Assembly (NCBI GenBank): GCA_050295575.1
Contig: JBNKPX010000004.1
Span: 609 to 64,608 of the forward strand
From: Gammaproteobacteria bacterium
GTDB lineage: Bacteria > Pseudomonadota > Gammaproteobacteria > GCA-001735895
Length of the DNA stretch: 64,000 bases
Direction of reading: 5' to 3'
Shown here in pieces: positions 1 to 55,795 of the stretch. Below the pieces are notes generated by a model. That model made no database searches. It had not been told where the DNA came from and worked only from the letters and a program-made list of their open reading frames with translations. The first letter of the stretch is position 1; each line of letters begins with the position of its first letter. A program made the translations under genes and the position numbers.

Positions 1-1916
1 CTTGGGTCATAACGCAGGTTCTTTATTGTGCTGCTCGGGATACGGGTGCGCCCCCTGAACGATGTGGTTTCTGACGAAGAAGTACTCGATATTCTAACAC
101 CCACGCTGGTGTAGTCCTTGTCCATAAAAAATCCACGAATGGTATAGTCGCCAGAGATATAGATGTTATCAGTGGCATCTATCGCAGCAATGGCTGGTGT
201 CGTAGCGGTTGCAGCCGAAGCTTTAGTGGCCTCAATAGAGGATAGTGACAGGCTCACATAGATCTGACTAACGTCATCTATGAGGTAGGTTGAACCAGCG
301 AAAAAGTTAGTGCTTTTGCTGGTTCGATCTTCAGCCAGCTGGTAGATCTGGGCATTACTGAGACCTGTTTTGGATATTAATTCATCTAATGTTTCTACAC
401 CCTGAGCCTGTATAGCGTTGGTGGTAGTTAGCAGCGGTGAATTCCTGTGATCAAGCGTCAGGTTGAAGGATAATTTGTCAGTGTGACGATAGTTGGTAAT
501 GGCGGTGATATTGTTTAGATCATTATAGAACAGATCATAGTCAACGATTCCGTAGATAAAACCTCTCTTTGTACGGTACTGAAACTCAGTACCTATGGCC
601 TGTCTATCAGTGAGCCCGGCACTGTTCTGTTGAACCAGATAGTAATCCATATTGAATTCTTTGGAAAATTTAAGGCTTATGTCACCACCAAAAAATACAC
701 GATTAGTATCGATTGAGTCATAGGATGACTGAACCGGAAAACCGGTGAACAGGCTATATCCAAGATCAGGATTTGAAATGTCTTTGTAGACAAACCCATC
801 AAAACGACCCAATACTCCTTTTGCGGTACGACTTTGACGTCCACCGATGATCTGGTATTCACCCACATTATTGATGTAATTCACCATGGCTCGACTGATT
901 CTGGCCTGGTTATCACTGTCCAGAAAATCACTGACGATACCGCCATCGAACCTTAGAACCAGAGAGTCTGTATCCGTTTTTCTACGGGCGAACAGGTTGA
1001 TATCACTGACCAGAGCATTATTGACTTCTTCAGTACTTAGCGTATCTATAGCAAGGATATCATTTCGATAGTATTGAGAAGCAGAGCCCGACAGGTACCA
1101 GTCATCGGCGATGCCTTTGATTTTATCCTCGCTCATGCGTTTCCTGGGTTCGGCGCGCATGGTCTTAAGGCCTTGAAGACGGTTTTCGATTTTCGGAGCT
1201 CTTTCACTATCCGGGTAGAGCGCTAGAAATTTACTGTATACGGCGATAGCCTGAGGGATTTTCTGCTGTCTTTCCCGTGCAATACCGGAGTATTCCAGCG
1301 CCTGCTGTTGCTGTTCCAGATTGCCTATTTCAGCTACCTTTCCCGCTATCGCGAGCACTCGGCGGTAATTTCCATCGAGAAATTTCTGCTTGGCATCCTG
1401 CAGTAATTTCTCTGCAAGCTTTTCTTTTTTTGTGGCTGGTGGTCGTTTGAGATCAGGTTTAGTAGCACGTACTGCAGGAATGGGTGCCTTGACTGTTGCT
1501 GCAGGTTGCACAGCTCGTGGTTTTGTTTGTAATAGTTGTGACGTCAGAATGGATATTTCGGTTTTGCTACGGAAGTTTATCCAGGCACTAGGATAAGATT
1601 GTTTCAGCTTTTGCAGCTGATTATTGGCATCCTTTTGCGTGGGGTAGTTTCCCATTACGAGACGGTAGTAGGTTTTAGTATTCACCTCGACCATGTTTAG
1701 ATAAACCAGCTCATTGCTATCACGGGCCATGCCTTTAAGATCGTTTTTGGGTATTTTTCTGCCTGATGATGAAAGGTTTATGGAGTAGCTGTGGATAGTA
1801 CTTATCTGTGCTGGCTTAGAATAAATTGTATCCACGCCTAGATATTCGCTCTTTGCCGCGAATAACAGGTTTGGGATCAATACCAGCAAATATAGGTAAT
1901 TCTTTAAATAAGGCAT
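1..1916 (-). CDS. Outer-membrane protein: signal peptide + SPOR-like domain + TPR-like segment + beta-barrel region (C-terminus lies outside the window)
   Basis: Absent from the supplied track because it has no stop codon in the window. The minus-strand frame is open from the ATG at 1916-1914 to position 1 (638 codons). The N-terminus MPYLKNYLYLLVLIPNLLFAA looks like a signal peptide. YSINLSSS...YYRLVMGNYPTQKDANNQLQKLKQSYPSAWI resembles a SPOR fold. LLQDAKQKFLDGNYRRVL...AVYSKFLALYPDSERAP is TPR-like. The remainder shows alternating aromatic/polar strand patterns typical of OM barrels. Confidence 0.6.
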   Translation of the reverse strand, partial: MPYLKNYLYLLVLIPNLLFAAKSEYLGVDTIYSKPAQISTIHSYSINLSSSGRKIPKNDLKGMARDSNELVYLNMVEVNTKTYYRLVMGNYPTQKDANNQLQKLKQSYPSAWINFRSKTEISILTSQLLQTKPRAVQPAATVKAPIPAVRATKPDLKRPPATKKEKLAEKLLQDAKQKFLDGNYRRVLAIAGKVAEIGNLEQQQQALEYSGIARERQQKIPQAIAVYSKFLALYPDSERAPKIENRLQGLKTMRAEPRKRMSEDKIKGIADDWYLSGSASQYYRNDILAIDTLSTEEVNNALVSDINLFARRKTDTDSLVLRFDGGIVSDFLDSDNQARISRAMVNYINNVGEYQIIGGRQSRTAKGVLGRFDGFVYKDISNPDLGYSLFTGFPVQSSYDSIDTNRVFFGGDISLKFSKEFNMDYYLVQQNSAGLTDRQAIGTEFQYRTKRGFIYGIVDYDLFYNDLNNITAITNYRHTDKLSFNLTLDHRNSPLLTTTNAIQAQGVETLDELISKTGLSNAQIYQLAEDRTSKSTNFFAGSTYLIDDVSQIYVSLSLSSIEATKASAATATTPAIAAIDATDNIYISGDYTIRGFFMDKDYTSVGVRISSTSSSETTSFRGRTRIPSSTIKNLRYDP

Positions 1917-1943
1917 ACAAAAAATTCAATATTATTATAACAA

Positions 1944-1972
1944 CTCTGCAACTTACGCGTTAAGTTGCAGAG
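1944..1972 (-). other. Intercistronic perfect hairpin (12-bp stem, CGCG loop) between the 14-heme cytochrome gene and the OM protein gene
   Basis: ctctgcaactta-cgcg-taagttgcagag is a perfect palindrome. It is followed on the minus strand by only a weakly T-rich tract, so it could be a partial terminator or an mRNA-stability element. Confidence 0.4.
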
Positions 1973-1987
1973 ACTATCCAGTCTGGT

Positions 1988-3166
1988 TTATCGATCCCAA
2001 TCAGAGTCTGTAACCCTATGGTGAGAACTATCCTGGTGGCAGGAGCCACTACAATCAGCATTTTCTGCCACAGTCTCGTAGCCACCACTACCATTCTCAT
2101 GTTCTCTCTGGTCATAATCTCCATCATGACAGGCCGCACATTGTGGTGCATAAGCTGTATTCCATGATGGTATTTCATTGTTGCTGCCGTGGCAGTCGAT
2201 GCAGGCTGCATTATCATGCCGTCCCCCAGTTGGAACATTTGAGCTACTATGCACATATGGTTTTGCAGTCCAGTTAACCGTGGTATGACAGACGTCACAG
2301 GCTTCAGTAGTAACGAAATGACCTGTTGACTGTCCTGTTGCCGACACACCATTGTGGCAACTTTCACAGGGTTCTCCTCCCACATCCGCATGACTCCATG
2401 TGCTGTTAGACCAACTGACAGTGGTGTGGCAATTCTCACACTCCAGGATGGTTAGCATATGGGTTGAGTGTTTTCCTTGTGCCAGAATACCATTATGACA
2501 GCTGGAACAATTTCCAATGACGGAGATATGATCAACTTTATACACAGGGTCAAAAGTAATGGTTGTGTGGCAATCTTCGCAGCTGTCGGTAGAAAGAATA
2601 TGATTGGTATTTTTAGGGGTTGCTATCACACCATTGTGGCAGAGCTGACAGTTACCGGTAATCCCTTCGTGATCAAACACGGCATCATGCCAGGAATTTG
2701 TACGATGACAGTTATCGCAGACATCACTACTTTCGATGTGTCCCGGGTGTTTACCGACCGCGACTATGCCATTATGGCAGCTTTGACATTCCCCAGTGAC
2801 GGCAAAGTGGTCAACCCTGGCGACGTTTTCCCAGTTGCCGGTCTGGTGACAAAACTCACAGTCATTGGTGGTTCTCATGTGTTTGGCTGAAGGTGCGCTG
2901 GCCTGGATACGCCCCGAGTTAGAATGGCAACCACTACACTGGGTAGGGGTCCCTCTAAAAACGCCCTGGATATGGCAGGAATCGCATTTTTCTCTGGCAT
3001 GTACGATATCTAACGGGAAGTTAGTTTCATCGTGATCAAATTTCGCAGCATTAGCGGTATTGAACATACCTGTAGACAAAAACAACGAAAGCAGTATAAA
3101 GGATAAAAGATTTAGCCAGTTTTTGCGCAAACCAGTGATATTTGTTTTAGCTATATTCATTATCAT
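1988..3166 (-). CDS. Multiheme cytochrome c (13 CxxCH + 1 CxxxCH), doubled-CXXCH repeat type, secreted
   Basis: I counted 13 CxxCH motifs plus a C-terminal CSGSCH. The module C.SCHNG..A.GK..H......C..CH.T..W recurs. The N-terminus has a hydrophobic signal sequence ending in ANA-AK. Confidence 0.9.
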   Translation of the reverse strand: MIMNIAKTNITGLRKNWLNLLSFILLSLFLSTGMFNTANAAKFDHDETNFPLDIVHAREKCDSCHIQGVFRGTPTQCSGCHSNSGRIQASAPSAKHMRTTNDCEFCHQTGNWENVARVDHFAVTGECQSCHNGIVAVGKHPGHIESSDVCDNCHRTNSWHDAVFDHEGITGNCQLCHNGVIATPKNTNHILSTDSCEDCHTTITFDPVYKVDHISVIGNCSSCHNGILAQGKHSTHMLTILECENCHTTVSWSNSTWSHADVGGEPCESCHNGVSATGQSTGHFVTTEACDVCHTTVNWTAKPYVHSSSNVPTGGRHDNAACIDCHGSNNEIPSWNTAYAPQCAACHDGDYDQREHENGSGGYETVAENADCSGSCHQDSSHHRVTDSDWDR

Positions 3167-3184
3167 TAAATACTCCAGTGAGGC

Positions 3185-4768
3185 TTAACTTCCAAATCTT
3201 CGGCTATTTATGTCGATTTCCTGGAAGTCATCGATGGAATGGCAGTCATCACAGTAAGGGCCAAAGTTTCCTTCGTGTATATCGTCCCGGTTGTGGCAGT
3301 CGATACAACGGCTTTTCATTTTTCTGTCTTTTTCCAGTGGCTTGAAATGGCAGGCGTGGCAATGCAGCCCTTCATGTGCACCTCTAATCTTGAAGTCGGT
3401 TTCGTCATGATCAAATTCCCAGATCAGCCAGTCGTTGGGGTTATGGCACAGTTTGCAATCATCACCGAAAGCTTTTTCATGTACATCGTCTTCACGATGG
3501 CAATTTATACACTCAGACTTGGCATCCTTAAATTCGGATGTCAAATGACAGGATTCACAACCAACGACGGCATGCTGGCCAATCAGGGGGAAATTAGTCA
3601 GTTCGTGATCGAAGCGAACGTCTTCCATCCACCATGATTTGTCATTATGACAGTTATTACATTTCTTACCCTGTTGTTCCTTATGAGCATCTTGATGTTT
3701 ATGACAGCTGTAACAGGCTTTGTCGGTTTTTTTACCTTTCTGATCGGACTGATGACAGGATTGGCAGCTGGCTTTTTTATGTGCACCCTTTAATGGGAAA
3801 TCCGTCTTTTTATTATGATCAAAGCTGGAGTCTAGCCAACTGGTTTCGTTATGACATTGATCGCATTTTTTCTTATTTTTACCTTTATGCACATCATCCA
3901 GTCGATGGCAGCTATAACAGTTTCGAGTTGTTTTTTTACCCTTAGGCTTTTTCTTTTTACTGTCGGCTACGGTATGGCAGGTATGACAGGTGGTCGCTTT
4001 ATGCTTACCCTTCAATTTGAAGTCCGTATCCTGGTCATGGTCAAATTTTGTCTTATCCCACTTTTTCTCTGTGTGGCAACTCTGACATTTTTTACCGAAT
4101 CGATTTTGGTGCACATCCTTGATGGCGTGGCATGAGACACATTTTTTAGGGGTGTCTTTGTACTGGTTTTCAACGTGGCATAGGTCGCAGGCTACTTTTT
4201 TATGTGCATGTTTTAACTTGAAGTCTGTCTTGTCATGGTCAAACTGCTCACTACTCCAGCCTTTGGGGTTGTGACAGCTGTCACATTTTTTTCCAAGATT
4301 GGTTTCATGGGCATCATCCTCTTCATGACAGGAAAAGCACTTATGTGGAGCCTCTCTATATTTTTTTTCTTCTTTATGACAGCTTGAGCACTCTGCCTGT
4401 GTATGCTTGCCTTCAAGCGGGTAATCGGTCGATTTATGATTAAAACGGTCCTTATCCAGCCATATGATGCTGGCATCTCTACCCTTATGTTCGGTATGAC
4501 AGACCCTGCACTCAACGCCAATGACCTGTTTATTTAAGCCATGAAAACCATGCTTTGAGTTTACATCGTCTGCTACCTCTTCATGGCAATCCAGGCAAAG
4601 TTGTCGCTGAGTCGTTTCCTGTAATCGGACATGACAACTTTCACATTTTAATTCATATTCTGCATGCCCTTCTATGACCTTGCCGGGCATGAATAGCTTT
4701 TCAAAGTCCATAGCCTGCGCCATTTGTGGTAGCAGGGTTATAAAAAACAACGTGAGTAATAACTTCAT
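3185..4768 (-). CDS. 21-heme cytochrome c built from seven triheme (cytochrome c7-like) modules, secreted, very Lys-rich
   Basis: I counted 21 CxxCH motifs. The unit FDH..TDF.L.G.H...C..CH...C..CH...D.H....G..C..CH recurs seven times. Signal peptide is MKLLLTLFFITLLPQMAQA. The start lies 3 nt after the stop of the upstream membrane-protein gene. Confidence 0.9.
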   Translation of the reverse strand: MKLLLTLFFITLLPQMAQAMDFEKLFMPGKVIEGHAEYELKCESCHVRLQETTQRQLCLDCHEEVADDVNSKHGFHGLNKQVIGVECRVCHTEHKGRDASIIWLDKDRFNHKSTDYPLEGKHTQAECSSCHKEEKKYREAPHKCFSCHEEDDAHETNLGKKCDSCHNPKGWSSEQFDHDKTDFKLKHAHKKVACDLCHVENQYKDTPKKCVSCHAIKDVHQNRFGKKCQSCHTEKKWDKTKFDHDQDTDFKLKGKHKATTCHTCHTVADSKKKKPKGKKTTRNCYSCHRLDDVHKGKNKKKCDQCHNETSWLDSSFDHNKKTDFPLKGAHKKASCQSCHQSDQKGKKTDKACYSCHKHQDAHKEQQGKKCNNCHNDKSWWMEDVRFDHELTNFPLIGQHAVVGCESCHLTSEFKDAKSECINCHREDDVHEKAFGDDCKLCHNPNDWLIWEFDHDETDFKIRGAHEGLHCHACHFKPLEKDRKMKSRCIDCHNRDDIHEGNFGPYCDDCHSIDDFQEIDINSRRFGS

Positions 4769-4771
4769 AGA

Positions 4772-5563
4772 CTAATAAAAATGAACGACTACAACGTGGG
4801 TTATACCAGATAGTACCAGCATGATGAAAAGTGGAAAATGCAGAATGTGCCAATAAGAGAATAGTATCTCATTAATACCCAGAGTGCAGATTGAGCGCAG
4901 CCCCCAGGCTCGATCCAGAAAGTTTCTGCGATCATCAGAAGGCTTATATTCGTTCAGTATCCTGGCTTTTAACTTTTTCAGCTTCCGGCGGTTTGAAATG
5001 TAAAACCAGAGAGATCGGTTTATCCCCGTATGCTGGACCACAAGATCGTCTTCAATTTTTTTCAACTCGGCAGAGAGTTCAGGGGTTTGCTGAGTAATAA
5101 CCTCGAATTCATGGGTTTCATTGTCAAAACTACGGTACAGGTCTTTAAAGCGAATTTTTCCACCATATAATCCATAGTGTATTCTACGATACAGGTAGCG
5201 GCCAATGAGCCCACTAGATGCAACAATAAGCATGCAGGTAAAGGCGACTGTGCCGTTTAGAGAACCCAGTCGGTAGCCAGAATGATAGATGATCAGTACG
5301 GGACCAAGGATGCCCAGAATCATGTGAAAACGAAACCAGAACTTTATAGAGCCAAGAAAGGTCCAGTTAGATTTCTGCTTTCGCAACGGGTAAACAAGCA
5401 GCAGCAGCATCATAGACCCGCCGATAATACCGAGCCAGTAACCAATGCCAGTTTCAGCCACAAAGTAATGATGGTCGGAGATTGTCCAGCCAAAATAGAT
5501 AACGGCTACTACACTGATGTACCAGAGTAGTGCAAGAGTATTAAGTGCGAATCGTATAACCAT
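4772..5563 (-). CDS. Integral membrane protein, candidate di-heme cytochrome b (ferric-reductase-like / cytochrome-b-like helix pair)
   Basis: About 5 hydrophobic helices. His80/His94 (FHMILGILGPVLIIYH) and His242/His256 (HFPLFIMLVLSGITH) are each spaced 14 residues apart on two helices, which is the classic bis-His two-heme spacing. A ~95-aa charged loop separates helices 4 and 5. Confidence 0.55.
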   Translation of the reverse strand: MVIRFALNTLALLWYISVVAVIYFGWTISDHHYFVAETGIGYWLGIIGGSMMLLLLVYPLRKQKSNWTFLGSIKFWFRFHMILGILGPVLIIYHSGYRLGSLNGTVAFTCMLIVASSGLIGRYLYRRIHYGLYGGKIRFKDLYRSFDNETHEFEVITQQTPELSAELKKIEDDLVVQHTGINRSLWFYISNRRKLKKLKARILNEYKPSDDRRNFLDRAWGLRSICTLGINEILFSYWHILHFPLFIMLVLSGITHVVVVHFY

Positions 5564-5707
5564 GAATTCAATAAATAATGTTAATATAGGTTTAGCTTTT
5601 TTAATATATCAGATATGTGACTTTTATTGGGAATATATTACCATTTTTATGATAAAGTTCGCTTAAACAAACCTCTAACTTTACCACGGATTAACCCCTG
5701 ATTTCTC

Positions 5708-7009
5708 ATGGACACTATCTATTATTTTGTCCCTTTTATTCTATTCTTTCTTGGATATGTCTGGAGGGCGCATCGTCGTCAGCGACTGAACGAATTTGTT
5801 CGTCAGGAAGCTATTGAAACTGGCCTGGCTGAGCCTGCATCCTTACATCCCATTATTGATCGAAATAAATGCATAGGCTGTAAGTCCTGCGTTTATGTTT
5901 GCCCGCAGCAGCTTGGACATAACGTATTAGGCATCTTTCATGGCAAGGCTGAGTTACTTGAGCCTGCTAACTGCATAGGCCATGGTGCCTGTAAGAAGGT
6001 TTGCCCTGAAAATGCAATTACTCTTGTTTTTGGTACAGAGAAACGAGGTGTTGATATTCCCCTGGTCGATGATGACTTCGAAACCAATGTCAAAGGTATC
6101 TACATTGCGGGTGAATTGGGTGGTATGGGGCTGATCCGTAACGCTATCGAGCAGGGTAAGTCGGCGATGAAGTCAATTATTTCGTCCTTGCCAAAAAGTA
6201 GCAGTCATCAATATCAGGTGATCATAGTTGGAGCCGGCCCCGCAGGGCTTGCTTCTACGCTGGCTGCACAGGAGGCGAATCTAAAATACCTTGCTCTGGA
6301 TCAGGATTCTCTCGGCGGTACTGTTTTTCAGTACCCCAGAGGTAAAATTGTTATGACCCAGCCGGTCGACTTACCTATGGTTGGTAAGATGCATTTCAAG
6401 GAAACAACCAAGGAGGAGTTACTGGAATTCTGGCAAGGTGTTGAGCAAAAGACGGGTATTAAGGTTAGTTACCATGAGATTGTAGCTGGTGTAGAGACTT
6501 TGAATGGAGGGTTTAAGGTTAAGACTAACAAAGGTGAATATGAAACAGATACTGTGCTTCTCGCCATAGGTAGACGAGGTACTCCGCGTAAACTCGGTAT
6601 TCCTGGCGAGGAATTACCCAAGGTTGTGTATCGCCTGATTGACCCAGCACAGTATGCAAATCAAAAGGTTATGATAGTCGGGGGAGGTGATTCTGCCCTG
6701 GAAGCCGCATTAGCCATCGCTGATGAAGAAGGTAGTGAGGTTTCAATCTCCTACCGTAGTAATAGCTTTTCGCGTGCTAAAGCCAAAAATCGTGAACGGA
6801 TAGACAGCTATGCCAGTGAAGGAAAGATTACACTTTATCTCAGTTCAACCCCTAAGGAAGTCACTGAGCACAGTATTATTCTGAAATCAAATGATCAGGA
6901 TATAGAAGTTCCAAATGATGCTGTGATTATTAATGCAGGCGGCATCTTGCCAACGGGGTTTCTGAAACAGATTGGTATAGAAGTAGAGACCAAATTTGGA
7001 ACAGTTTAA
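5708..7009 (+). CDS. Membrane-anchored ferredoxin-domain / FAD-NAD(P)-binding pyridine nucleotide-disulfide-type oxidoreductase
   Basis: N-terminal TM helix followed by RAHRRQR. Fe-S motifs CIGCKSCVYVCP and CIGHGACKKVCP. Dinucleotide folds VIIVGAGPAGL and VMIVGGGDSALEAA. Transcribed divergently from the cytochrome operon. Confidence 0.8.
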   Translation: MDTIYYFVPFILFFLGYVWRAHRRQRLNEFVRQEAIETGLAEPASLHPIIDRNKCIGCKSCVYVCPQQLGHNVLGIFHGKAELLEPANCIGHGACKKVCPENAITLVFGTEKRGVDIPLVDDDFETNVKGIYIAGELGGMGLIRNAIEQGKSAMKSIISSLPKSSSHQYQVIIVGAGPAGLASTLAAQEANLKYLALDQDSLGGTVFQYPRGKIVMTQPVDLPMVGKMHFKETTKEELLEFWQGVEQKTGIKVSYHEIVAGVETLNGGFKVKTNKGEYETDTVLLAIGRRGTPRKLGIPGEELPKVVYRLIDPAQYANQKVMIVGGGDSALEAALAIADEEGSEVSISYRSNSFSRAKAKNRERIDSYASEGKITLYLSSTPKEVTEHSIILKSNDQDIEVPNDAVIINAGGILPTGFLKQIGIEVETKFGTV

Positions 7010-8985
7010 TGATTGACTTAAAGATATTAATAATTGCTTTTAGCCTGATTTTTATAATTACCCCGCCGTTACAGGCAGATAGTAAGCAGCAACTACAGGA
7101 TATTAGCCGATCGATACGTATCAGAGATTACAGCAAGGCTGTCAAGCAGCTGCAACCCCTGATCAGATCTGGTGATTCTGAAGCTCAATTCTTACTGGCA
7201 GGCCTGTACCGCTCAGGTAAAGGGGTGAAAAAGGATCTGGATAAAGCGATACAGCTGTATGAAAAATCCTCTAATAATGGGCATGCAGATGCTCAATATA
7301 CCCTGGCTTCCTTACTGGAAAAAAAGGGGGATATGACTCAGGCGTTATTCTGGTATCAGCAGGCTTCAGAGCAGGGGCATAGAAAAGCCCGGAAAAAACT
7401 GAAATCTGCCCAGAAGACTAGTGGATCATTTTGCAATAAAGATATTAATGCGGATGCCATATTTAGCTCGATTGTTCATAATGACATCAAGTTCATTCAA
7501 TCCTGTGTTGAGAATGGCTATAACTTTAATATTCAGGATAAGTCTTCTCGTTCACCACTTATAGCTGCTTTGCTAGCAGAGCATAAAGAGATTGCTGATC
7601 TATTGTTACCGGTTACACAAAACCTGAAACATGGTGACCAAAATAAGAATCAGGCTATTCATGTTGCCGCTTCAAACGGCTTTGCAGATATTGTTAAAAA
7701 GTTGCTCGATAAGAAAGTGGATATCAATGCACAGGATAACCTGGGCAATACACCGCTGTTAATTGCCGTGCGTCATGATGATGCGAAGCTAGCCCGCCTA
7801 CTTTTACAGAATAAAGCCAGTTACAGTTTACAAAATAAAAGAAAGGTTTCTGCCATAGAGTTGGCGCAAACCAGAGCTGATTCAGGCGTGTTAAAGGCTT
7901 TTTCCAGCCAGGGAATTAAGGTTGGTAAAAATGAGGATCAATATAACGATGTCAGTATTAAGGATTTTGAGAAATCTATAAAACAGTCGTCATCATTATA
8001 TAAAGGCTGGCCTATTTTAAGTATTGCCAGCCTGCTGGGTGAGAATGATATAGCCCGGCAATTGCTTAAACAGGGCGCTAAGGTTAATGCGGTGGATAGT
8101 TCTGGCTACGCTGCCCTGCATAGAGCGAGCGCTAAAGATCAGGTTAAAACAGTAGACCTGTTGCTTGCCTCCGGTGCGCTAATCAATAGTCAGAATAACA
8201 AAGATGAAACGCCTCTGTTTTTAGCTGCTGAAGCGGGTAGTTATAAAACGGTTAAGCGCTTACTTGAAAAAGGAGCTGATCCAACAATATTATCAGCGAA
8301 TAAAACGAGTGCTTTAGCTGTTGCCATAGCTAATCAGCGTAAGGATGTCGCCTTGTTGCTGGCTGAAAAAGAGCTGGATAATGATTCTATACACCTGGCA
8401 CTTTTCCTGGCTATCCAAAAAGATATGGAAGAGGTAGCTGTCAAGCTGGTAAAGCGTGATGCATTAATCAATGATGTGGATGGTAATAAACGTAGTGTTC
8501 TCTGGTTCAGTGCTGACAAGGGACTGGAAAAGATTACTGCCGCCTTATTATTAAATAAGTCTGTAGATATTGATCAGAAAGATGTAAAGGGTTACAGCCC
8601 TCTGGCCCGGTCAATTTTAAGGGGGCATAGTGTAGTTTCTAAATTATTAATTGGGGTTGGGGCGGATGTTAATACTCGAACGGCGGAAAAAAACACCCTG
8701 TTGATGCAATCGGTTCTATCAGGCAAAAAGGAAATGACAAAATTGCTTATCGATAAAAAAATCAATATAGATGCTAAAAATAACTCTGGTGAAACGGCCC
8801 TGATGTTAGCGGCGGGGGCAGGTAATAATGATCTGGTAGAAATACTGATTGAGGCGGGTGCTGATATACAGACAAGAAATCAGGATGACCTCAGTGCCTA
8901 TGAAATTGCATTAAATGCTGGAAAAAAAGATACCGCTGAGTTAATTCGTAATAAAAGCGGCAGGCTTTTTAAGCTGTTTAATTAG
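7009..8985 (+). CDS. Secreted Sel1-repeat + multi-ankyrin-repeat protein
   Basis: Signal peptide ending PPLQA-DS. Sel1-like AQFLLAGLYRSGKGVKKDLDKAIQLYEKSS and AQYTLASLL. Many ankyrin units (GNTPLLIAVRHDDAKLARLLL, ETPLFLAAEAGSYKTVKRLLEKGAD and others). The start overlaps the upstream stop (TAATG). Confidence 0.85.
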   Translation: MIDLKILIIAFSLIFIITPPLQADSKQQLQDISRSIRIRDYSKAVKQLQPLIRSGDSEAQFLLAGLYRSGKGVKKDLDKAIQLYEKSSNNGHADAQYTLASLLEKKGDMTQALFWYQQASEQGHRKARKKLKSAQKTSGSFCNKDINADAIFSSIVHNDIKFIQSCVENGYNFNIQDKSSRSPLIAALLAEHKEIADLLLPVTQNLKHGDQNKNQAIHVAASNGFADIVKKLLDKKVDINAQDNLGNTPLLIAVRHDDAKLARLLLQNKASYSLQNKRKVSAIELAQTRADSGVLKAFSSQGIKVGKNEDQYNDVSIKDFEKSIKQSSSLYKGWPILSIASLLGENDIARQLLKQGAKVNAVDSSGYAALHRASAKDQVKTVDLLLASGALINSQNNKDETPLFLAAEAGSYKTVKRLLEKGADPTILSANKTSALAVAIANQRKDVALLLAEKELDNDSIHLALFLAIQKDMEEVAVKLVKRDALINDVDGNKRSVLWFSADKGLEKITAALLLNKSVDIDQKDVKGYSPLARSILRGHSVVSKLLIGVGADVNTRTAEKNTLLMQSVLSGKKEMTKLLIDKKINIDAKNNSGETALMLAAGAGNNDLVEILIEAGADIQTRNQDDLSAYEIALNAGKKDTAELIRNKSGRLFKLFN

Positions 8986-9043
8986 AGCGCTTTTTGATCA
9001 AAAAAATCATGTCTTTCTATCTGCCAGATAATAAGCTTTAACA

Positions 9044-9514
9044 GTGGGTAATAGTCGACGCCAGCAATTGATCAGAGCGCTTAAGTTTTCAGTGCTGCTG
9101 GCATCGATATTTATTGCTTTTGTATTTATTGATTTTTCTTTTAATCAGCCGAAATTAGATAAGGAATATCGTTTTGAGGTTCCTGATTTAATCGATAATC
9201 AACCAGTAATACTGAATCAGGGATCTATGATTATTGTTGTCGCTCATTATAATAGCGATATAAGTGATCAGTTCTCTGCAAAACCTGCAAGCGCATCGCG
9301 CATCGATTCAGCAGGGTATTTTGTGGCACTGGCTTATGGGACAGATTTAGGTTGCCCTGTTCAGCTGGCCGAGGATCATTTTAAAGAAAGCTGTAGCCAG
9401 GCTATGTATGATTTACTCGGACAATCATTAGATCAGAATTCTTTTAAGAATCTTGAAATACCTCATTACCGTTGGAATAAAAACTTTTCTGCTTTAACCA
9501 TTTATCAGGAGTAA
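9044..9514 (+). CDS. Membrane-anchored Rieske-fold-like protein lacking the 2Fe-2S ligands (hypothetical)
   Basis: GTG start. N-terminal SRRQQL plus a hydrophobic helix resembles a Rieske Tat-type anchor. GTDLGCPV and ESCSQAMYDLLG align by eye with CTHLGC and CPCHGS.YD, but the Cys/His cluster ligands are replaced. Confidence 0.45.
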   Translation: MGNSRRQQLIRALKFSVLLASIFIAFVFIDFSFNQPKLDKEYRFEVPDLIDNQPVILNQGSMIIVVAHYNSDISDQFSAKPASASRIDSAGYFVALAYGTDLGCPVQLAEDHFKESCSQAMYDLLGQSLDQNSFKNLEIPHYRWNKNFSALTIYQE

Positions 9515-9516
9515 CT

Positions 9517-9999
9517 ATGCCTTCATTTGATACCGTATCTGAAATTGATCATCACGAATTAAAGAATGCCATCGATCAGGCGAATCGTGAGATCGGAACA
9601 CGTTATGACTTTAAGGGTGCTAATGCAAAAATTGAGCTGAATGAAAAGGAAATCATGTTTCATGCTGAATCACGCTTCCAGTTGCAACAGATGTTTCCCG
9701 TGCTGTTATCTAAAATGGGCAAACGAGGACTTGATATTGAATGCCTGAAAACGGGAGATGTTGTTGAGGCGGCAAAATCTGCGCGTCAACCGATCTCAAT
9801 ACAGGAAGGTATAGATAAAGAGACAGCTAAAAAAATCGTCAAGCTGATTAAAGAATCCAAATTGAAAGTACAGGCTTCCATTCAGGGAGAGCAGGTGCGC
9901 ATTACCGGTAAAAGTCGAGATGATTTACAGCAGGCTATGAAGTTCATGAAGGACGGTAATCTGGGTATTCCACTTCAATTTACAAATTTTCGCGATTAA
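9517..9999 (+). CDS. yajQ: YajQ-family (UPF0234) nucleotide-binding protein
   Basis: MPSFDTVSEIDHHELKNAIDQANREIGTRYDFKG is the characteristic YajQ N-terminus. At 160 aa the length fits. Confidence 0.9.
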   Translation: MPSFDTVSEIDHHELKNAIDQANREIGTRYDFKGANAKIELNEKEIMFHAESRFQLQQMFPVLLSKMGKRGLDIECLKTGDVVEAAKSARQPISIQEGIDKETAKKIVKLIKESKLKVQASIQGEQVRITGKSRDDLQQAMKFMKDGNLGIPLQFTNFRD

Positions 10000-28674: not shown

Positions 28675-29955
<1,281 letters not shown>

Positions 29956-40231: not shown

Positions 40232-42253
40232 TCAGTTGCTGTTCTGTGCGTTAATTTGCTTGTTCAGACTCTGCAGGCGTGGATGGTCAGGGAAGAATCT
40301 AAGGCCTGTTTGTATGTACTCGGTTGCCTTGACAAAATCACTTTTTGCCAGACTTCTTTCGGCTTCTGACAGGTATAGCTCCGCAAGCTTCGGGTCTTTC
40401 AGTAGATAATGTTTGGGGTCAACGCGTTTCAGCAGAGGAAGCACCGTGGTCAAGTCTTCACCAGTTTCAGATTTGGTTAATAGTTTATTCTTTACATAAA
40501 GGTTATACAGGGCAATCAGGCTGCTCATCAGGCGGTCTTTCTGTTCCTTGATATTATCCTCGGTAGTCGATAGAGCAACAGAGTCGGGATAATGATGTTT
40601 CGCCTGGTTAAGCAGGCTGATTGCCTGAGGATAATCATACAGGCCTTCCTTGGGTCTAAATACAGTTTTAATTCTGTCCTGATAGAAGGTAATGATCTCA
40701 CGTCTGAGGCCAACAGATAAAATTTGTTGGTGCTCTGGACTCATTTGCTCCAGGCCCCAGATGGTTTCTATCATTAAGGCTTTATCACCATTTTTGATGC
40801 GTTCAATCTTTTCGTATATAGACTGTTCCTCACGAAATGTCATCAGTGGTTCATATCCTGCACCTGCACCAATGATTGAAAGAAAGAGCGCTCCTAGTAT
40901 GATTTGTTTACTGTGAGATTTTCTTAGGCGTATGCCCTCCTGAAATTTTTCTACGGAAGGGATCCTGTCTTCTCTGTTCACTGATAGTGCTTTAACCAGA
41001 GTACGCTGCTGGCGACGATCCAGACCTTTTATAGGTTTTGGCTTTATACCAAGCTCCTTGATCTTGGGAGAAGCGACTTTATTATAAGGGTGCTTCCCTC
41101 CTGCAAGTAACTGATAGGCAACACAGGCCAGACCATAGATATCATCTCTCGGGTCGGGGCTCATACCTGCAAACATTTCAGGTGTAGCATAGGCTGGGGT
41201 AACCGCACTTAGTTTGCCGGGGTCAAACATGGTTTGTTCTTTTTCTTCTCCGGCAATAGTGCCTGCACGTGCGATACCAAAATCTAGTAATTTGACACTG
41301 CCATCGTTAAGCAAAAAGCAGTTGCCCGGCTTGAAATCTGAATGGATCAGATTTTTCTCGTGTGCATAAGCCAGTCCCAGACAAAGTTGGTCAATAATGT
41401 GTAGTGCCTGTTCTATTTTCAGGGGTTTCTTTGTGAGATCCTTAATCAGTCGATTTAACGGTTTACCCTGCAGATATTCCATCGTCATAAAGACGGTATC
41501 ACCATCACGGTCAAAATCGTAAACCGTAGCAATATTGGGGTGTGCAAGACGTTGCGCCTTACTGGCTTCTCGTTGCAGGGCTATAAATGAACCAGAATAC
41601 TTTTTAAATGCATCGGTTAGTACCTTTATTGCGACATAGGGATCCTTGTCTTTGGCTTCTACTTTGAGTAGATCCTTAGCCTTGAATACGACGCCCATAC
41701 CTCCCTGGCCAAGTCTTTCGAGTAAAACGAAACGGTTTTTTAAAGTGACCCCGGGCCCCAGATTTTCATGTTTAACAGGAGTCTGAGGGTAAGTGGGAGA
41801 GGTATTCGTTGGCTGACTAGCTGATATGTCTGGGTCGATACTGAAATCGCCAGTGATATCCAGGGTTTCTGGAGGTGTAGCCCGACTTACAGGCATTGCG
41901 GTATCGGTCCGAATTATTACGGTTTGGTCGGCACTAGCGTCACCTGCTACATAGGAATCTGGTAAATCAGTTAGATGTAGTGTTTTATCTTCATTAAAGT
42001 AGGATAAATCGGTAGATGCCTGACTGTTGGATAAGGTAGCCTGTATACTTAGCTGAGATACGGTTTCTGAGAGAAATTTGAATTGTTCATCATTAATCCT
42101 ATTCTGAGTGTAAAGCTGCTTAAGATAGGTAAGAGTTTGCGGGCTACTACTATGAGAAGCATGGAAAATGGAAGTTAGACCTTCTTCCATGTCTTTTCGA
42201 CTTAATGTACCTGTCAGGAAGTCATTAATGATTGATTCACAAATTTCAGACAT
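40232..42253 (-). CDS. Hanks-type Ser/Thr protein kinase with a TM helix and a periplasmic TPR-like domain
   Basis: LGQGGMGVVFKA...VAIKVL, HSDFKPGN, DFGIA, TM helix IILGALFLSIIGAGAG, and a helical-repeat C-terminus. Confidence 0.9.
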   Translation of the reverse strand: MSEICESIINDFLTGTLSRKDMEEGLTSIFHASHSSSPQTLTYLKQLYTQNRINDEQFKFLSETVSQLSIQATLSNSQASTDLSYFNEDKTLHLTDLPDSYVAGDASADQTVIIRTDTAMPVSRATPPETLDITGDFSIDPDISASQPTNTSPTYPQTPVKHENLGPGVTLKNRFVLLERLGQGGMGVVFKAKDLLKVEAKDKDPYVAIKVLTDAFKKYSGSFIALQREASKAQRLAHPNIATVYDFDRDGDTVFMTMEYLQGKPLNRLIKDLTKKPLKIEQALHIIDQLCLGLAYAHEKNLIHSDFKPGNCFLLNDGSVKLLDFGIARAGTIAGEEKEQTMFDPGKLSAVTPAYATPEMFAGMSPDPRDDIYGLACVAYQLLAGGKHPYNKVASPKIKELGIKPKPIKGLDRRQQRTLVKALSVNREDRIPSVEKFQEGIRLRKSHSKQIILGALFLSIIGAGAGYEPLMTFREEQSIYEKIERIKNGDKALMIETIWGLEQMSPEHQQILSVGLRREIITFYQDRIKTVFRPKEGLYDYPQAISLLNQAKHHYPDSVALSTTEDNIKEQKDRLMSSLIALYNLYVKNKLLTKSETGEDLTTVLPLLKRVDPKHYLLKDPKLAELYLSEAERSLAKSDFVKATEYIQTGLRFFPDHPRLQSLNKQINAQNSN

Positions 42254-54889: not shown

Positions 54890-55795
54890 ATGACGGGAAA
54901 GCCACTTCAATGTATTGTCATGTTTGCGGATGTCGCTGGAAGCACTGCAATCTATGAGAATCTAGGCGATGTTGAAGCTAGAGATAGAATCTCAAAGGCG
55001 CTGAATACACTGATCTCTATTTGCAAGCGCCATAAGGGGGTGCTGGTAAAAACGATAGGCGATGAAATCCTTGTCTATTTCCATGATGTAGACCTTTCTA
55101 TCCTGGCAGCATCCGCTATCCAGGAAACCATGGAGGATGGCCGTTCTCCTGAAACTGTAGGCATATCCATTCGTATTGGTATGCACTATGGTTCAGTTAT
55201 CTATGAGGGTAACGATATATTTGGTGATACCGTTAATGTAGCTGCTCGTGTCGTTGCAATGACTAAAGCGCGACAAATTCTCTTTACCAGTGAGTTGGCT
55301 AACCGGATCAGTTCATCCGAATTAAGCTATAAAACTCGACAATATGACCGTATTCGAGTTAAAGGCAAGGAAGAATCACTTGATGTTTACCTTTATTCCT
55401 GGGAGGAAGAGTCTGATATCACCAATATGGCAACTGCCAGCAGTTTTACTAACCCCTCCAAATTTGATCAGGCAGATGGTTTAACACTGACTTATGGTGA
55501 TACAGTTATCAAGCTGGATTTTAAAAGTTCTGGTATTAATATTGGTCGCGGCAAGGATTGCGATTTAATTGTGAGTGGAGATTTGATTTCTCGATTTCAT
55601 GCCAGGATTGAGGTGAGAAGGGGCAAGTTTGTGCTTATTGACCAGAGCACGAATGGTACTTATCTGCGAACTAGAGATGGACAAAACTTCTTTTTGCGAC
55701 AGGAAGATCTGGCCCTGTTTGGAAATGGGATGATCAGCCTTGGTAAAAATATTGATAAAGGCCCAGAAAATCTAATTGCCTATAGCTGTGATTAG
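54890..55795 (+). CDS. Class III adenylate/guanylate cyclase fused to a C-terminal FHA domain
   Basis: VMFADVAGST, GDEILVYF and GDTVNVAARV form the cyclase core. IGRGKDCDLIVSGDLISRFHARIE...STNGTYL is the FHA signature. Confidence 0.85.
   Translation: MTGKPLQCIVMFADVAGSTAIYENLGDVEARDRISKALNTLISICKRHKGVLVKTIGDEILVYFHDVDLSILAASAIQETMEDGRSPETVGISIRIGMHYGSVIYEGNDIFGDTVNVAARVVAMTKARQILFTSELANRISSSELSYKTRQYDRIRVKGKEESLDVYLYSWEEESDITNMATASSFTNPSKFDQADGLTLTYGDTVIKLDFKSSGINIGRGKDCDLIVSGDLISRFHARIEVRRGKFVLIDQSTNGTYLRTRDGQNFFLRQEDLALFGNGMISLGKNIDKGPENLIAYSCD

Follow-up and report, generated by a model that had tools for sequence, protein, structure and literature searches.

A PCC3-type porin-cytochrome gene cluster with conserved flavoprotein and ankyrin-protein partners in an uncultured marine gammaproteobacterium

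To which system do the multiheme cytochromes, membrane proteins and flavoprotein encoded at this gammaproteobacterial locus belong, and where might electrons enter it? The locus lies in a 64,000-nt stretch of DNA (the window), and all its open reading frames and junctions agree almost to the base with an earlier note that read it as a complete, uncharacterised trans-envelope electron conduit (Table 1). On the minus strand, 3 nt separate the stop of the inner-membrane protein (IMP) gene from the start of the 21-heme cytochrome gene and 18 nt the two cytochrome genes, and the hairpin (12-bp stem, 5-nt loop, read 1972-1944) possibly serves as an attenuator or mRNA-stability element. On the plus strand, the TAA stop of the flavoprotein gene overlaps the ATG of the ankyrin-protein gene (TAATG). 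The divergent region is presumed to hold the promoters of both strands; within it, promoter-like matches showed no excess over shuffled sequences, and no Fur, FNR, ArcA or IscR boxes were found beyond shuffled controls. The parts list and the placing of one component in each compartment are borne out, and the reading as a porin-cytochrome module for extracellular electron transfer (EET) is reasonable. The proposed link to sqr turned out weak, as the SQR-like ORF of the window reaches 122 bits where the cut-off is 525.

Table 1. Features of the locus, in window coordinates
Feature	Position	Strand	Remarks
Outer-membrane protein gene	1..1916	-	Runs past window edge; PCC3 'porin'
Hairpin	1944..1972	-	Terminator-like scan; between second cytochrome gene and outer-membrane protein gene
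Multiheme cytochrome c, 392 aa	1988..3166	-	13 CXXCH + 1 CX3CH
21-heme cytochrome c, 527 aa	3185..4768	-	21 CXXCH, seven triheme units
Inner-membrane protein (IMP), 263 aa	4772..5563	-	Five TM helices, two His-pair motifs
Divergent intergenic region, 144 bp, 27% GC	5564..5707		Both promoters presumed here
Fe-S flavoprotein, 433 aa	5708..7009	+	Fer4 dicluster + Pyr_redox_3
Sel1/TPR + ankyrin-repeat protein, 658 aa	7009..8985	+	Signal peptide
Degenerate Rieske-like protein, 156 aa	9044..9514	+	RR motif/TM N-terminus, weak Rieske matches

The four minus-strand genes are a PCC3 cluster, as matched on published hallmarks and on annotations of Sideroxydans lithotrophicus ES-1 rather than on the Slit sequences themselves. 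PCC3 is a porin-cytochrome c gene cluster described by He et al. 2017 (Front Microbiol 8:1584; PMC5566968), in which a beta-barrel outer-membrane protein, an extracellular and a periplasmic multiheme cytochrome (MHC) and a conserved IMP are encoded together; the open reading frames and the barrel model described below give the same set of four. The founding clusters are those of ES-1 (Slit_0867-0870) and Leptothrix cholodnii, and PCC3 occurs in iron oxidisers, where its four genes were put forward as a candidate Fe(II) oxidase coupled to quinones (PMC5566968). The ES-1 porin Slit_0867 is annotated as 'Sporulation domain-containing protein', in likeness to the SPOR-bearing protein here, and the adjacent Slit_0866 is annotated as an FAD-dependent oxidoreductase, while a second PCC3 cluster of ES-1 (Slit_1446-1449) has no flavoprotein adjacent. 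The earlier statement that the b-type membrane protein and the SPOR barrel match no described system therefore did not hold, because both fit PCC3 (PMC5566968). 'Uncharacterised' remains correct in the experimental sense, since papers of 2025-2026 still call PCC3 untested, but not for the gene cluster, which had already been described (PMC5566968). In contrast to the PCC3 iron oxidisers, the host here is an uncultured marine gammaproteobacterium that is not a known iron oxidiser.

The window covers the N-terminal 638 of the 705 residues of the outer-membrane protein, with the C-terminal 67 aa outside, and the full-length sequence was taken from P0121 (100% identical). A signal peptide, a SPOR match (PF05036, E = 1.9e-6), a weak TPR match and the AlphaFold2 model (mean pLDDT 86.6) agree with the SPOR/TPR/beta-barrel protein that had been proposed; the model places SPOR at residues 23-128, the TPR helices at 163-264 and, at 274-704, a barrel of 22 strands with a helical insert. 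Foldseek searches with the barrel model returned generic porin matches only.

Both cytochromes carry signal peptides, and their motif counts (Table 1) confirm the predicted secreted 21-heme and ~14-heme proteins. By chance, a sequence of 527 aa would have far fewer CXXCH motifs than the 21 present here. These are arranged in seven tandem c7-type triheme units of ~66-70 aa each, or 25.1 aa per heme (PF14522, E = 7.6e-22), and a count of 21 hemes recurs in about 70 of the 78 related loci. [quoted passage not shown] Tandem triheme c7-type units are also shared with the polymeric nanowire cytochromes (GSU1996 type; TIGR04257), but these have four units and 12 hemes, whereas the gene here encodes seven units and belongs to a porin module. 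The 14 hemes of the second cytochrome are ~23 aa apart in a sequence rich in T, S, G and N (T 8.9%, S 9.4%, G 7.7%, A 6.6%), which agrees in composition with the T/S/A/G-rich PCC3 extracellular MHC of variable heme number (PMC5566968). It probably sits at the cell surface, a location taken from the PCC3 literature. Its homologues in other loci have 7-68 hemes, with 67-68 in PCC3 second cytochromes of sulfur-oxidising lucinid-clam symbionts, and PCC3 includes some of the highest heme counts on record.

MtrCAB, MtoAB and PioAB are built on the same logic: a periplasmic multiheme cytochrome sits inside a barrel of the outer membrane, and a surface cytochrome may be added. However, these systems have an MtrA-family decaheme, whereas the TIGR03508 (MtrA/DmsE family) scores obtained here, 38 and 17 bits, fall short of the cut-off of 192. 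Unlike MtrB, the barrel has 22 strands and SPOR/TPR domains, and the IMP is of another type than the CymA/NapC-type inner-membrane partner of Mtr-like systems. Membership of MtrAB/MtoAB was rejected on the TIGR03508 scores and on the lack of MtrB among the top Foldseek matches of the barrel model.

PCC3 IMPs are described as ~300-aa proteins with five TM helices, WX3HX13H on TM3 and TM5 and SGXXG on TM4 (PMC5566968). In the IMP studied here, a hydropathy scan gives five hydrophobic segments, with W76FRFH80-X13-H94 on TM3, S117-G-L-I-G121 on TM4 and W238HILH242-X13-H256 on TM5. Among 22 aligned sequences, H80, H94, H242 and H256, the W76 and W238 motifs and SGLIG are invariant, and no Cys pair is conserved. 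Of the proposed di-heme-b membrane protein, the five helices and four invariant His thus stand, whereas the heme assignment comes from motifs only: two b hemes are predicted, and the positive-inside rule would place one near each membrane face. The NOX/FRE/MsrQ family likewise has two bis-His pairs, on TM3 and TM5 at 13-residue spacing; its members have six TM helices and PF01794, while the IMP has five and gave no PF01794 match at E <= 10 in any of 22 members. Four of the 22 weakly touch DUF4405 (E 0.65), and the IMP has no Pfam, PDB-sequence or Foldseek match and a mediocre AlphaFold2 model (pLDDT 70). The family comprises 3278 clusters at 50% identity. Between TM4 and TM5 lies a conserved, confidently helical cytoplasmic insert of ~100 aa, which would be superfluous for a quinol site and may support input from the flavoprotein.

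The flavoprotein begins with a hydrophobic helix and R/K residues, an order that places its cofactor domains in the cytoplasm, followed by CxxCxxCxxxCP, CIGHGACxxxCP and a YpdA/TrxR-like FAD and NAD(P)H fold (Fer4 dicluster at residues 47-106, with Fer4 family matches above cut-offs; Pyr_redox_3, E = 6.7e-46). The membrane-tethered, cytoplasmic Fe-S flavoprotein of the earlier note is therefore upheld in anchor, Fer4 domain and NAD(P)/FAD fold, but not in its eight cysteines, as the Fe-S domain has seven Cys and a conserved His (CIGHGAC). This His replaces Cys2 of the second motif in 71 of 76 loci, and the second cluster could be a His-ligated [4Fe-4S] or a [3Fe-4S]. All seven Cys are in the Fer4 domain and none elsewhere, so the flavoprotein lacks a redox disulfide. 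The motifs GAGPAG, GGGDSALEAA and SYR..F.RAK are all invariant, and the C-terminal FAD motif seems to have shifted to a place ahead of the Rossmann fold. FAD and NADPH Rossmann motifs are shared with the bacillithiol-disulfide reductase YpdA/Bdr and with TrxR-like ferredoxin-NADP+ reductases, and among solved structures 7a76 and 7a7b (E 1e-25) and 3lzw come nearest to the flavin part. However, compared with YpdA/Bdr the protein adds the N-terminal membrane anchor and the Fer4 dicluster domain. An assignment to YpdA/Bdr was rejected, because the score against TIGR04018 (179 bits) is below the equivalog cut-off of 339.9; the relation is at fold level only.

The overlapping start, signal peptide and Sel1/ankyrin repeats of the next gene product agree with the scaffold protein that had been described as coupled to the flavoprotein, and it is predicted to be periplasmic. 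The 156-aa protein beyond it combines an RR motif with a single hydrophobic helix, and its only matches are weak but consistent (TIGR01416, E 0.0015; the top seven PDB profile matches are all Rieske subunits, E 0.09-1.3). At the cluster-ligand positions it has G99, D101, E115 and S118, so that both Cys and both His of the Rieske CxH...CxxH ligands are replaced, as had been noted, while the disulfide Cys104 and Cys117 are kept. Only 12 homologues were found among 5.8 billion proteins. The gene is present in 5 of 80 loci, the closest relatives (L001-L005); it and yajQ are lineage-specific.

Gene linkage was compared in 80 genome loci anchored on the IMP and in metagenome loci anchored on the flavoprotein. 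The four minus-strand genes have the same order in the 80 related loci, and the barrel is kept together with both cytochromes in 64 of these, most of the others being without flank. The flavoprotein gene is found in 76 of the 80, and three of the four exceptions have no flank; with sufficient flank it is present in 76 of 77 (locus L039 lacks it). Conversely, the flavoprotein-anchored metagenome loci contain the IMP in 55/58 and the 21-heme cytochrome in 51/53 cases. The linkage of flavoprotein and IMP is thus near-obligate and reciprocal. That of the ankyrin gene is looser: it lies 3' of the flavoprotein gene in 72 of 80 genome loci, with one further locus cut after the first 57 residues, and occurs in 51 of 65 metagenome loci. 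Across Gamma- and Alphaproteobacteria the genes occur in at least four arrangements, including the divergent one and a co-directional flavoprotein-ankyrin-IMP order in Alphaproteobacteria; in L057 the flavoprotein gene comes behind the porin gene, and in L067 the ankyrin and flavoprotein genes follow the porin gene but lie on the other strand. Of all members the flavoprotein shows the strongest conservation, with 54-60% identity where the IMP has ~40%; a search of 150 representative homologues gave no fusion of flavoprotein and IMP ('Rosetta stone'). These ~130 independent loci strongly support the notion that the plus-strand flavoprotein and ankyrin genes are functionally tied to the minus-strand genes, which indicates shared function and not a direct electron path. 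Of the seven genes expected to co-occur, six are conserved and form the core, because the Rieske-like gene is confined to the closest relatives. The PCC3 literature has four genes, to which our comparison adds the flavoprotein and ankyrin genes as near-universal partners; we found no mention of the flavoprotein linkage in the searchable PCC3 literature.

The near-universal linkage suggests that the heme wire is linked to NAD(P)H rather than, or besides, the quinone pool. We give roughly even chances to the joint reading that the locus is a PCC3-type module with a six-gene core, in which a split NAD(P)H input like that of NOX or Fre-MsrQ feeds the 21-heme wire. The membrane-anchored cytoplasmic flavoprotein would oxidise NAD(P)H at FAD, and single electrons would cross the two Fe-S clusters, the second of which, with His for Cys2, would resemble surface 'exit' clusters. 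They would pass to the cytoplasmic-side b heme of the IMP (H80/H242) and then to the periplasmic-side b heme (H94/H256). The 21-heme cytochrome, with seven triheme units probably long enough, would cross the periplasm; through the 22-strand barrel, anchored by SPOR/TPR, the electrons would reach the 14-heme cytochrome on the cell surface. The periplasmic Sel1/ankyrin solenoid may assist the heme wire as scaffold or chaperone. The inner end would then be a two-component NOX/FRE-like device (cf. Fre-MsrQ), not a quinol oxidase, and sending electrons outward from NAD(P)H to an acceptor outside the cell would be thermodynamically favoured and aided by the membrane potential. Fre and MsrQ mimic NOX, and SpNOX reduces cytochrome c; both pair a cytoplasmic NAD(P)H flavoprotein donor with a periplasmic redox-protein acceptor. 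However, their donor is of the FNR fold or Fre, whereas here it is of the TrxR/YpdA fold with two predicted Fe-S clusters and the acceptor would be the 21-heme wire. That PCC3 itself is a trans-envelope 'split NOX', which dumps cytoplasmic reducing power on extracellular acceptors, bypasses quinones and is not primarily an iron oxidase, we propose only tentatively.

In the published PCC3 model, electrons move inward from extracellular Fe(II) or minerals through a quinone-reactive di-heme IMP, with the flavoprotein and ankyrin protein as accessories in regulation or stress protection, away from the main route of electrons. It has the authority of the original proposal (He 2017; PMC5566968), the occurrence of PCC3 in iron oxidisers and the Slit_1446-1449 cluster without a neighbouring flavoprotein on its side, but we consider it doubtful in view of the near-obligate, reciprocal linkage to a cytoplasmic NAD(P)H-type Fe-S flavoprotein, the conserved cytoplasmic domain of the IMP and a family devoid of a known quinone-site motif. 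Moreover, the PCC3 genes of ES-1 are down-regulated on Fe(II), which counts against a dedicated Fe(II)-oxidase role, and the hosts in this survey are mostly sulfur oxidisers or heterotrophs rather than iron oxidisers. Many of them are chemolithoautotrophic sulfur oxidisers (Ca. Thiodiazotropha, Thiohalomonadaceae, Chromatiaceae) in need of reductant, which would suit inward flow over the same wiring, from low-potential donors such as sulfide minerals, cathodes or partner cells through the flavoprotein to NAD(P)+. The analogy would be to Hmc/Tmc of sulfate reducers, where a high-heme cytochrome in the periplasm is joined across the inner membrane, by a cytochrome b, to an Fe-S protein in the cytoplasm, without an outer-membrane part. 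A weak HmcA-like signal in the 21-heme protein (30 bits against a cut-off of 400) speaks for this analogy. Yet the subunit families differ and a flavin/NAD(P)H domain is present here; reduction would run uphill to -320 mV against the membrane potential, and no proton- or ion-coupling subunit is conserved in the module, so we regard inward flow as unlikely.

Instead of electron input, the flavoprotein, IMP and ankyrin protein might form a dedicated maturation or maintenance system, which exports reducing power so that the 35 heme-binding motifs or the hemes stay reduced while the giant cytochromes are assembled. A CycH/CcmI-like cytochrome-biogenesis gene adjoins the IMP gene in 18 of 80 loci, the nearest solved flavoprotein relatives are thiol-disulfide-type reductases, and TPR, Sel1 and ankyrin repeats are common in chaperones. 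However, the four invariant His and missing Cys pair of the IMP and the absence of redox-active Cys beyond the Fe-S domain of the flavoprotein make such a role quite unlikely, and the 3-nt spacing of the IMP and 21-heme genes fits a structural partner. It is highly improbable that the locus encodes no conduit at all but an exopolysaccharide-type exporter, with ordinary periplasmic carrier cytochromes adjacent by chance: TPR plus barrel recalls PgaA, BcsC and AlgK/E, but AlgE, although among the Foldseek matches, is no better than generic porins (TM 0.3-0.5), no glycosyltransferase or polymerase genes are conserved nearby, and the barrel is co-conserved with two cytochromes.

The PCC3 four-gene cluster was known already; its near-universal flavoprotein and ankyrin partners come from the present comparison. 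PCC3 is among the most widespread predicted porin-cytochrome systems, and the travelling flavoprotein and ankyrin protein give a concrete, testable hypothesis for its missing inner-membrane step; a flavoprotein input could also account for PCC3 not responding to Fe(II) in Sideroxydans. Our survey also points to a potential for PCC3-type EET among sulfur-oxidising symbionts and in Gammaproteobacteria of sediments. If the split NOX is true, diverse Proteobacteria, including lucinid-clam symbionts, would shed reducing power extracellularly.

The four minus-strand genes at the start of the window appear to constitute a porin-cytochrome gene cluster of the PCC3 type, an assignment made on the features that define PCC3 in the literature, every one of which is found here, with the founding clusters compared by description. 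[quoted passage not shown] 2017, PMC5566968). The membrane protein of the window (IMP) carries SGXXG and both WX3HX13H motifs (W76-x3-H80-x13-H94, S117-G-L-I-G121 and W238-x3-H242-x13-H256), which are invariant across 22 homologues with identity as low as 51%. The 21-heme cytochrome is built of seven tandem triheme units, each ~66-70 aa (25 aa per heme), and resembles the periplasmic PCC3 cytochrome of the Riftia symbiont with its seven repeats of 66 aa and ratio of 26. The second cytochrome is rich in T, S, G and N with a heme spacing of ~23 aa, and its composition matches that of published PCC3 extracellular cytochromes (PMC5566968). The ORFs, their junctions, the hairpin and the divergent region were described correctly in the earlier note, and all are recovered here (Table).

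Table. Features of the module and its flank in the window
Feature	Position	Strand	Description
Outer-membrane protein gene (porin)	start at 1916, continues beyond window edge	-	ORF translation
Hairpin	1972-1944	-	12-bp stem; between second cytochrome and outer-membrane genes
Second cytochrome	1988-3166	-	392 aa; 13 CXXCH and one CX3CH; preceded by 18-nt gap
21-heme cytochrome	3185-4768	-	527 aa; exactly 21 CXXCH; start 3 nt past IMP stop
IMP gene	4772-5563	-	263-aa hydrophobic protein
Divergent intergenic region			144 bp, 27% GC; between minus- and plus-strand genes
Flavoprotein	5708-7009	+	433 aa; Fer4 dicluster; Pyr_redox_3, E 6.7e-46
Sel1 and ankyrin-repeat protein	7009-8985	+	658 aa, signal peptide; directly after flavoprotein, ATG overlaps its TAA stop
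Rieske-like ORF	9044-9514	+	156 aa; after ankyrin gene
YajQ-family cyclic-di-GMP-binding protein gene	9517-9999	+	starts 2 nt past Rieske-like ORF; last in row

The porin is 705 aa at full length in an identical public copy (P0121, MAG GCA_050290825.1) and has a SPOR domain match (E 1.9e-6). Its AlphaFold2 model (mean pLDDT 86.6) shows a SPOR-like region at 23-128, a disordered linker, TPR helices at 163-264 and a 22-strand beta-barrel at 274-704 that includes a helical insert (499-530); the SPOR domain presumably attaches the barrel to peptidoglycan. In Sideroxydans lithotrophicus ES-1, for which gene annotations come from proteome tables only, the PCC3 porin Slit_0867 is annotated as 'Sporulation domain-containing protein', and therefore a SPOR-bearing barrel is a PCC3 trait rather than a novelty. 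The cluster names of ten representatives added nothing on orthology to ES-1. The earlier note held that this barrel and the b-type membrane protein match nothing described; given the Slit_0867 annotation and the IMP motifs, both fit PCC3. An Mtr/Mto identity was rejected, as the decaheme model reaches 38 bits where 192 are required and the barrel finds only generic porins, ushers and AlgE by Foldseek (TM 0.3-0.5). The earlier interpretation is right in outline, but the core belongs to a system that had already been described, purely by bioinformatics. One distant porin homologue (P0237, on a 3.6-kb contig) is labelled Kaarinaea lacus, a cyanobacterium, and this contig is probably a contaminant from a non-axenic culture.

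An IMP-anchored scan with one genome per species gave 252 relatives, and the gene of the Fe-S flavoprotein occurs in 76 of the best 80 loci among these. In three of the four others the flank is missing, leaving a single locus (L039) truly without it. The ankyrin gene was recognised in 72 of the 80, and one further locus is cut after the first 57 ankyrin residues. When metagenomes were scanned from the flavoprotein instead (patterns CIGHGAC[KQR] and AGELGGMG), the IMP gene was found in 55 of the 58 loci whose upstream DNA was long enough, the 21-heme gene in 51/53 and the ankyrin gene in 51/65. The flavoprotein is also the best-conserved member, with 54-60% identity where IMP has ~40%, the ankyrin protein ~28% and the porin ~27%. 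Some 70 of 78 loci encode a periplasmic cytochrome with exactly 21 hemes, and the second cytochrome carries between 7 and 68. The Fe-S flavoprotein is therefore a near-obligate partner of PCC3 across Alpha- and Gammaproteobacteria, joined in most loci by the periplasmic ankyrin protein.

The gene arrangement varies while the linkage persists. Most Gammaproteobacteria examined have the divergent order, among them Ca. Thiodiazotropha, Thiohalomonadaceae, Chromatiaceae, Paraglaciecola, Thalassolituus, Methylococcaceae and Steroidobacteraceae. Emcibacter and Sphingomonadales possess a co-directional series of flavoprotein, ankyrin, IMP, cytochromes and porin, and one locus (L067) has its ankyrin and flavoprotein genes past the porin on the opposite strand. 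In another (L057) the flavoprotein gene lies 3' of the porin, an arrangement comparable to that of ES-1, in which an FAD oxidoreductase gene (Slit_0866) is located beside Slit_0867; the flavoprotein is thus probably a PCC3 partner in Sideroxydans as well. All-against-all clustering of the neighbourhood ORFs in the 80 loci revealed no further universal family, and the optional neighbours are CycH/CcmI-like proteins (18 loci), DUF6502 (12) and DUF5666 (8-9). In the divergent region of the window, Fur, FNR, ArcA and IscR boxes do not outscore those of shuffled sequence, and promoter-like and terminator-like counts show no excess over shuffles.

The earlier note proposed a unit of seven genes. Six of them co-occur, and the seventh, the Rieske-like ORF, is confined together with yajQ to the five closest of the 80 loci examined, so that the conserved unit comprises six genes; only 12 homologues of this ORF were found in a collection of 5.8 billion proteins, and it was rejected as a module member. 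Its description as a Rieske-like protein devoid of cluster ligands is plausible but not strongly established. The matches are weak but consistent (TIGR01416, E 0.0015; top seven PDB matches of a nine-sequence profile all Rieske proteins, E 0.09-1.3), and the alignment shows other residues at the two Cys and two His ligand positions, with the two disulfide Cys invariant. The ankyrin/Sel1 protein evolves fast, and every homologue carries a signal peptide; we can only guess that the protein serves as a periplasmic scaffold or chaperone.

Several side observations concern the cytochromes and the rest of the window. The public gene call of the 21-heme cytochrome (L081:7194-8732) gives 512 aa with a start inside the signal peptide, and the 527-aa start, 3 nt past the upstream stop, brings back MKLLLTLFFITLLPQMAQA. 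In Ca. Thiodiazotropha, a lucinid-clam symbiont, the second cytochrome contains 67-68 CXXCH within about 1650-1710 aa (L034, L038, L049, L059, L062, L068, L070, L074 and L076, at about 12.3-17.4 kb in locus coordinates), which ranks among the highest heme counts reported for a single protein. The gene taken for sqr in the earlier note (28684-29955, plus strand) encodes a flavoprotein that is only weakly SQR-like (122 bits with the type III SQR model, cut-off 525) and lies 19 kb from the module among the housekeeping genes uvrB, thrS and pheT. A 673-aa Ser/Thr protein kinase (40232-42253, minus strand) and a 301-aa protein whose matches are adenylate-cyclase-like and FHA-like (54890-55795, plus strand) seem unrelated to the module.

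In the flavoprotein, an N-terminal hydrophobic helix and basic residues precede a Fer4 dicluster domain and a fold of the pyridine-nucleotide-disulfide-oxidoreductase type. The basic residues follow the helix in all homologues and none of these has a Tat motif, indicating that the Fe-S and flavin domains are cytoplasmic. The Fe-S domain has seven cysteines, and its second motif, CIGHGACxxxCP, shows a His-for-Cys substitution in 71 of 76 homologues, suggesting that the second cluster is His-ligated or [3Fe-4S]. The closest solved relatives of the flavin part are YpdA/Bdr and TrxR-like ferredoxin-NADP reductases, and identity with YpdA was rejected because the score falls under the YpdA equivalog cut-off. 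The invariant AGELGGMGLIRN (aa 120-150) pairs in the alignment with residues 279-298 of 7a76, the C-terminal FAD motif of YpdA, and sits ahead of the GAGPAG Rossmann fold (aa 170-430), and hence the flavin domain looks circularly permuted relative to YpdA/TrxR.

In IMP, the TM2-TM3 loop (four K/R) and a ~100-aa insert between TM4 and TM5 are basic and thus predicted to be cytoplasmic, which would place H80/H242 near the cytoplasmic and H94/H256 near the periplasmic face, the stacked two-heme geometry of NOX/FRE/MsrQ domains. The insert is the most confidently modelled region of the AF2 model (22 sequences, pLDDT 70) and has invariant H129, G131, L132, G134, F139 and R183; the flavoprotein could plausibly dock there. 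Searches with IMP gave no Foldseek match in the PDB under E 0.2, no profile match among PDB sequences and nothing meaningful in Pfam at E <= 10. A fusion of IMP to the flavoprotein was sought among ten homologues of exceptional length from the representative search and was not found, as none has a Fer4 or flavin domain; these proteins bear N-terminal SPOR or TPR domains or no recognisable domain. In P0290, P0302 and P0313 of the representative library, the N-terminal SPOR or TPR corresponds to the accessory domains of the porin.

On the simplest path, electrons would pass from NAD(P)H through FAD, the [4Fe-4S] cluster and the His-ligated cluster to the inner and then the outer heme b, and from there over the 21 c hemes and the barrel to the 14-heme surface cytochrome. 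Fre and MsrQ, described as a two-protein NOX mimic, offer a precedent for such a flavoprotein-IMP pair, and bacterial SpNOX reduces cytochrome c directly. Outward flow would be downhill from -320 mV and aided by the inside-negative membrane potential. Inward flow of the Hmc/Tmc type would be uphill to NAD(P)+ on both counts, and we consider it quite improbable. The published model of quinone-coupled electron uptake could account for the one ES-1 PCC3 cluster (of Slit_0867-0870 and Slit_1446-1449) that has no flavoprotein, but both clusters are down-regulated on Fe(II), as would be expected of a function different from Fe(II) oxidation, and this model seems rather unlikely.

Service of the flavoprotein-IMP pair in cytochrome maturation is hinted at by the CycH-like neighbour in 18 loci. 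However, the flavoprotein has no cysteine outside its Fe-S domain and its flavin part hence cannot be a disulfide reductase, which argues against maturation, and we hold such a role to be very improbable. The CycH/CcmI-like cytochrome c biogenesis protein itself (PF23892, E 7e-38, and PF23914; e.g. L029:5827-6740, plus strand, L041, L064 and L072) is encoded directly upstream of IMP in L029 and is absent from the window.

In papers up to June 2026, PCC3 is still a system of four genes whose function is without experimental test. He et al. (2017) make no mention of ankyrin, pyridine nucleotide, 4Fe-4S or FAD, ankyrin is unmentioned in Hoover (2023), and our literature search found nothing relevant that ties ankyrin to PCC3 or to porin-linked multiheme cytochromes in extracellular electron transfer. 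Beyond the first reading, the unit is pruned from seven genes to six and PCC3 gains a near-obligate Fe-S flavoprotein; through this partnership, the inner-membrane step of PCC3 becomes a directly testable hypothesis.
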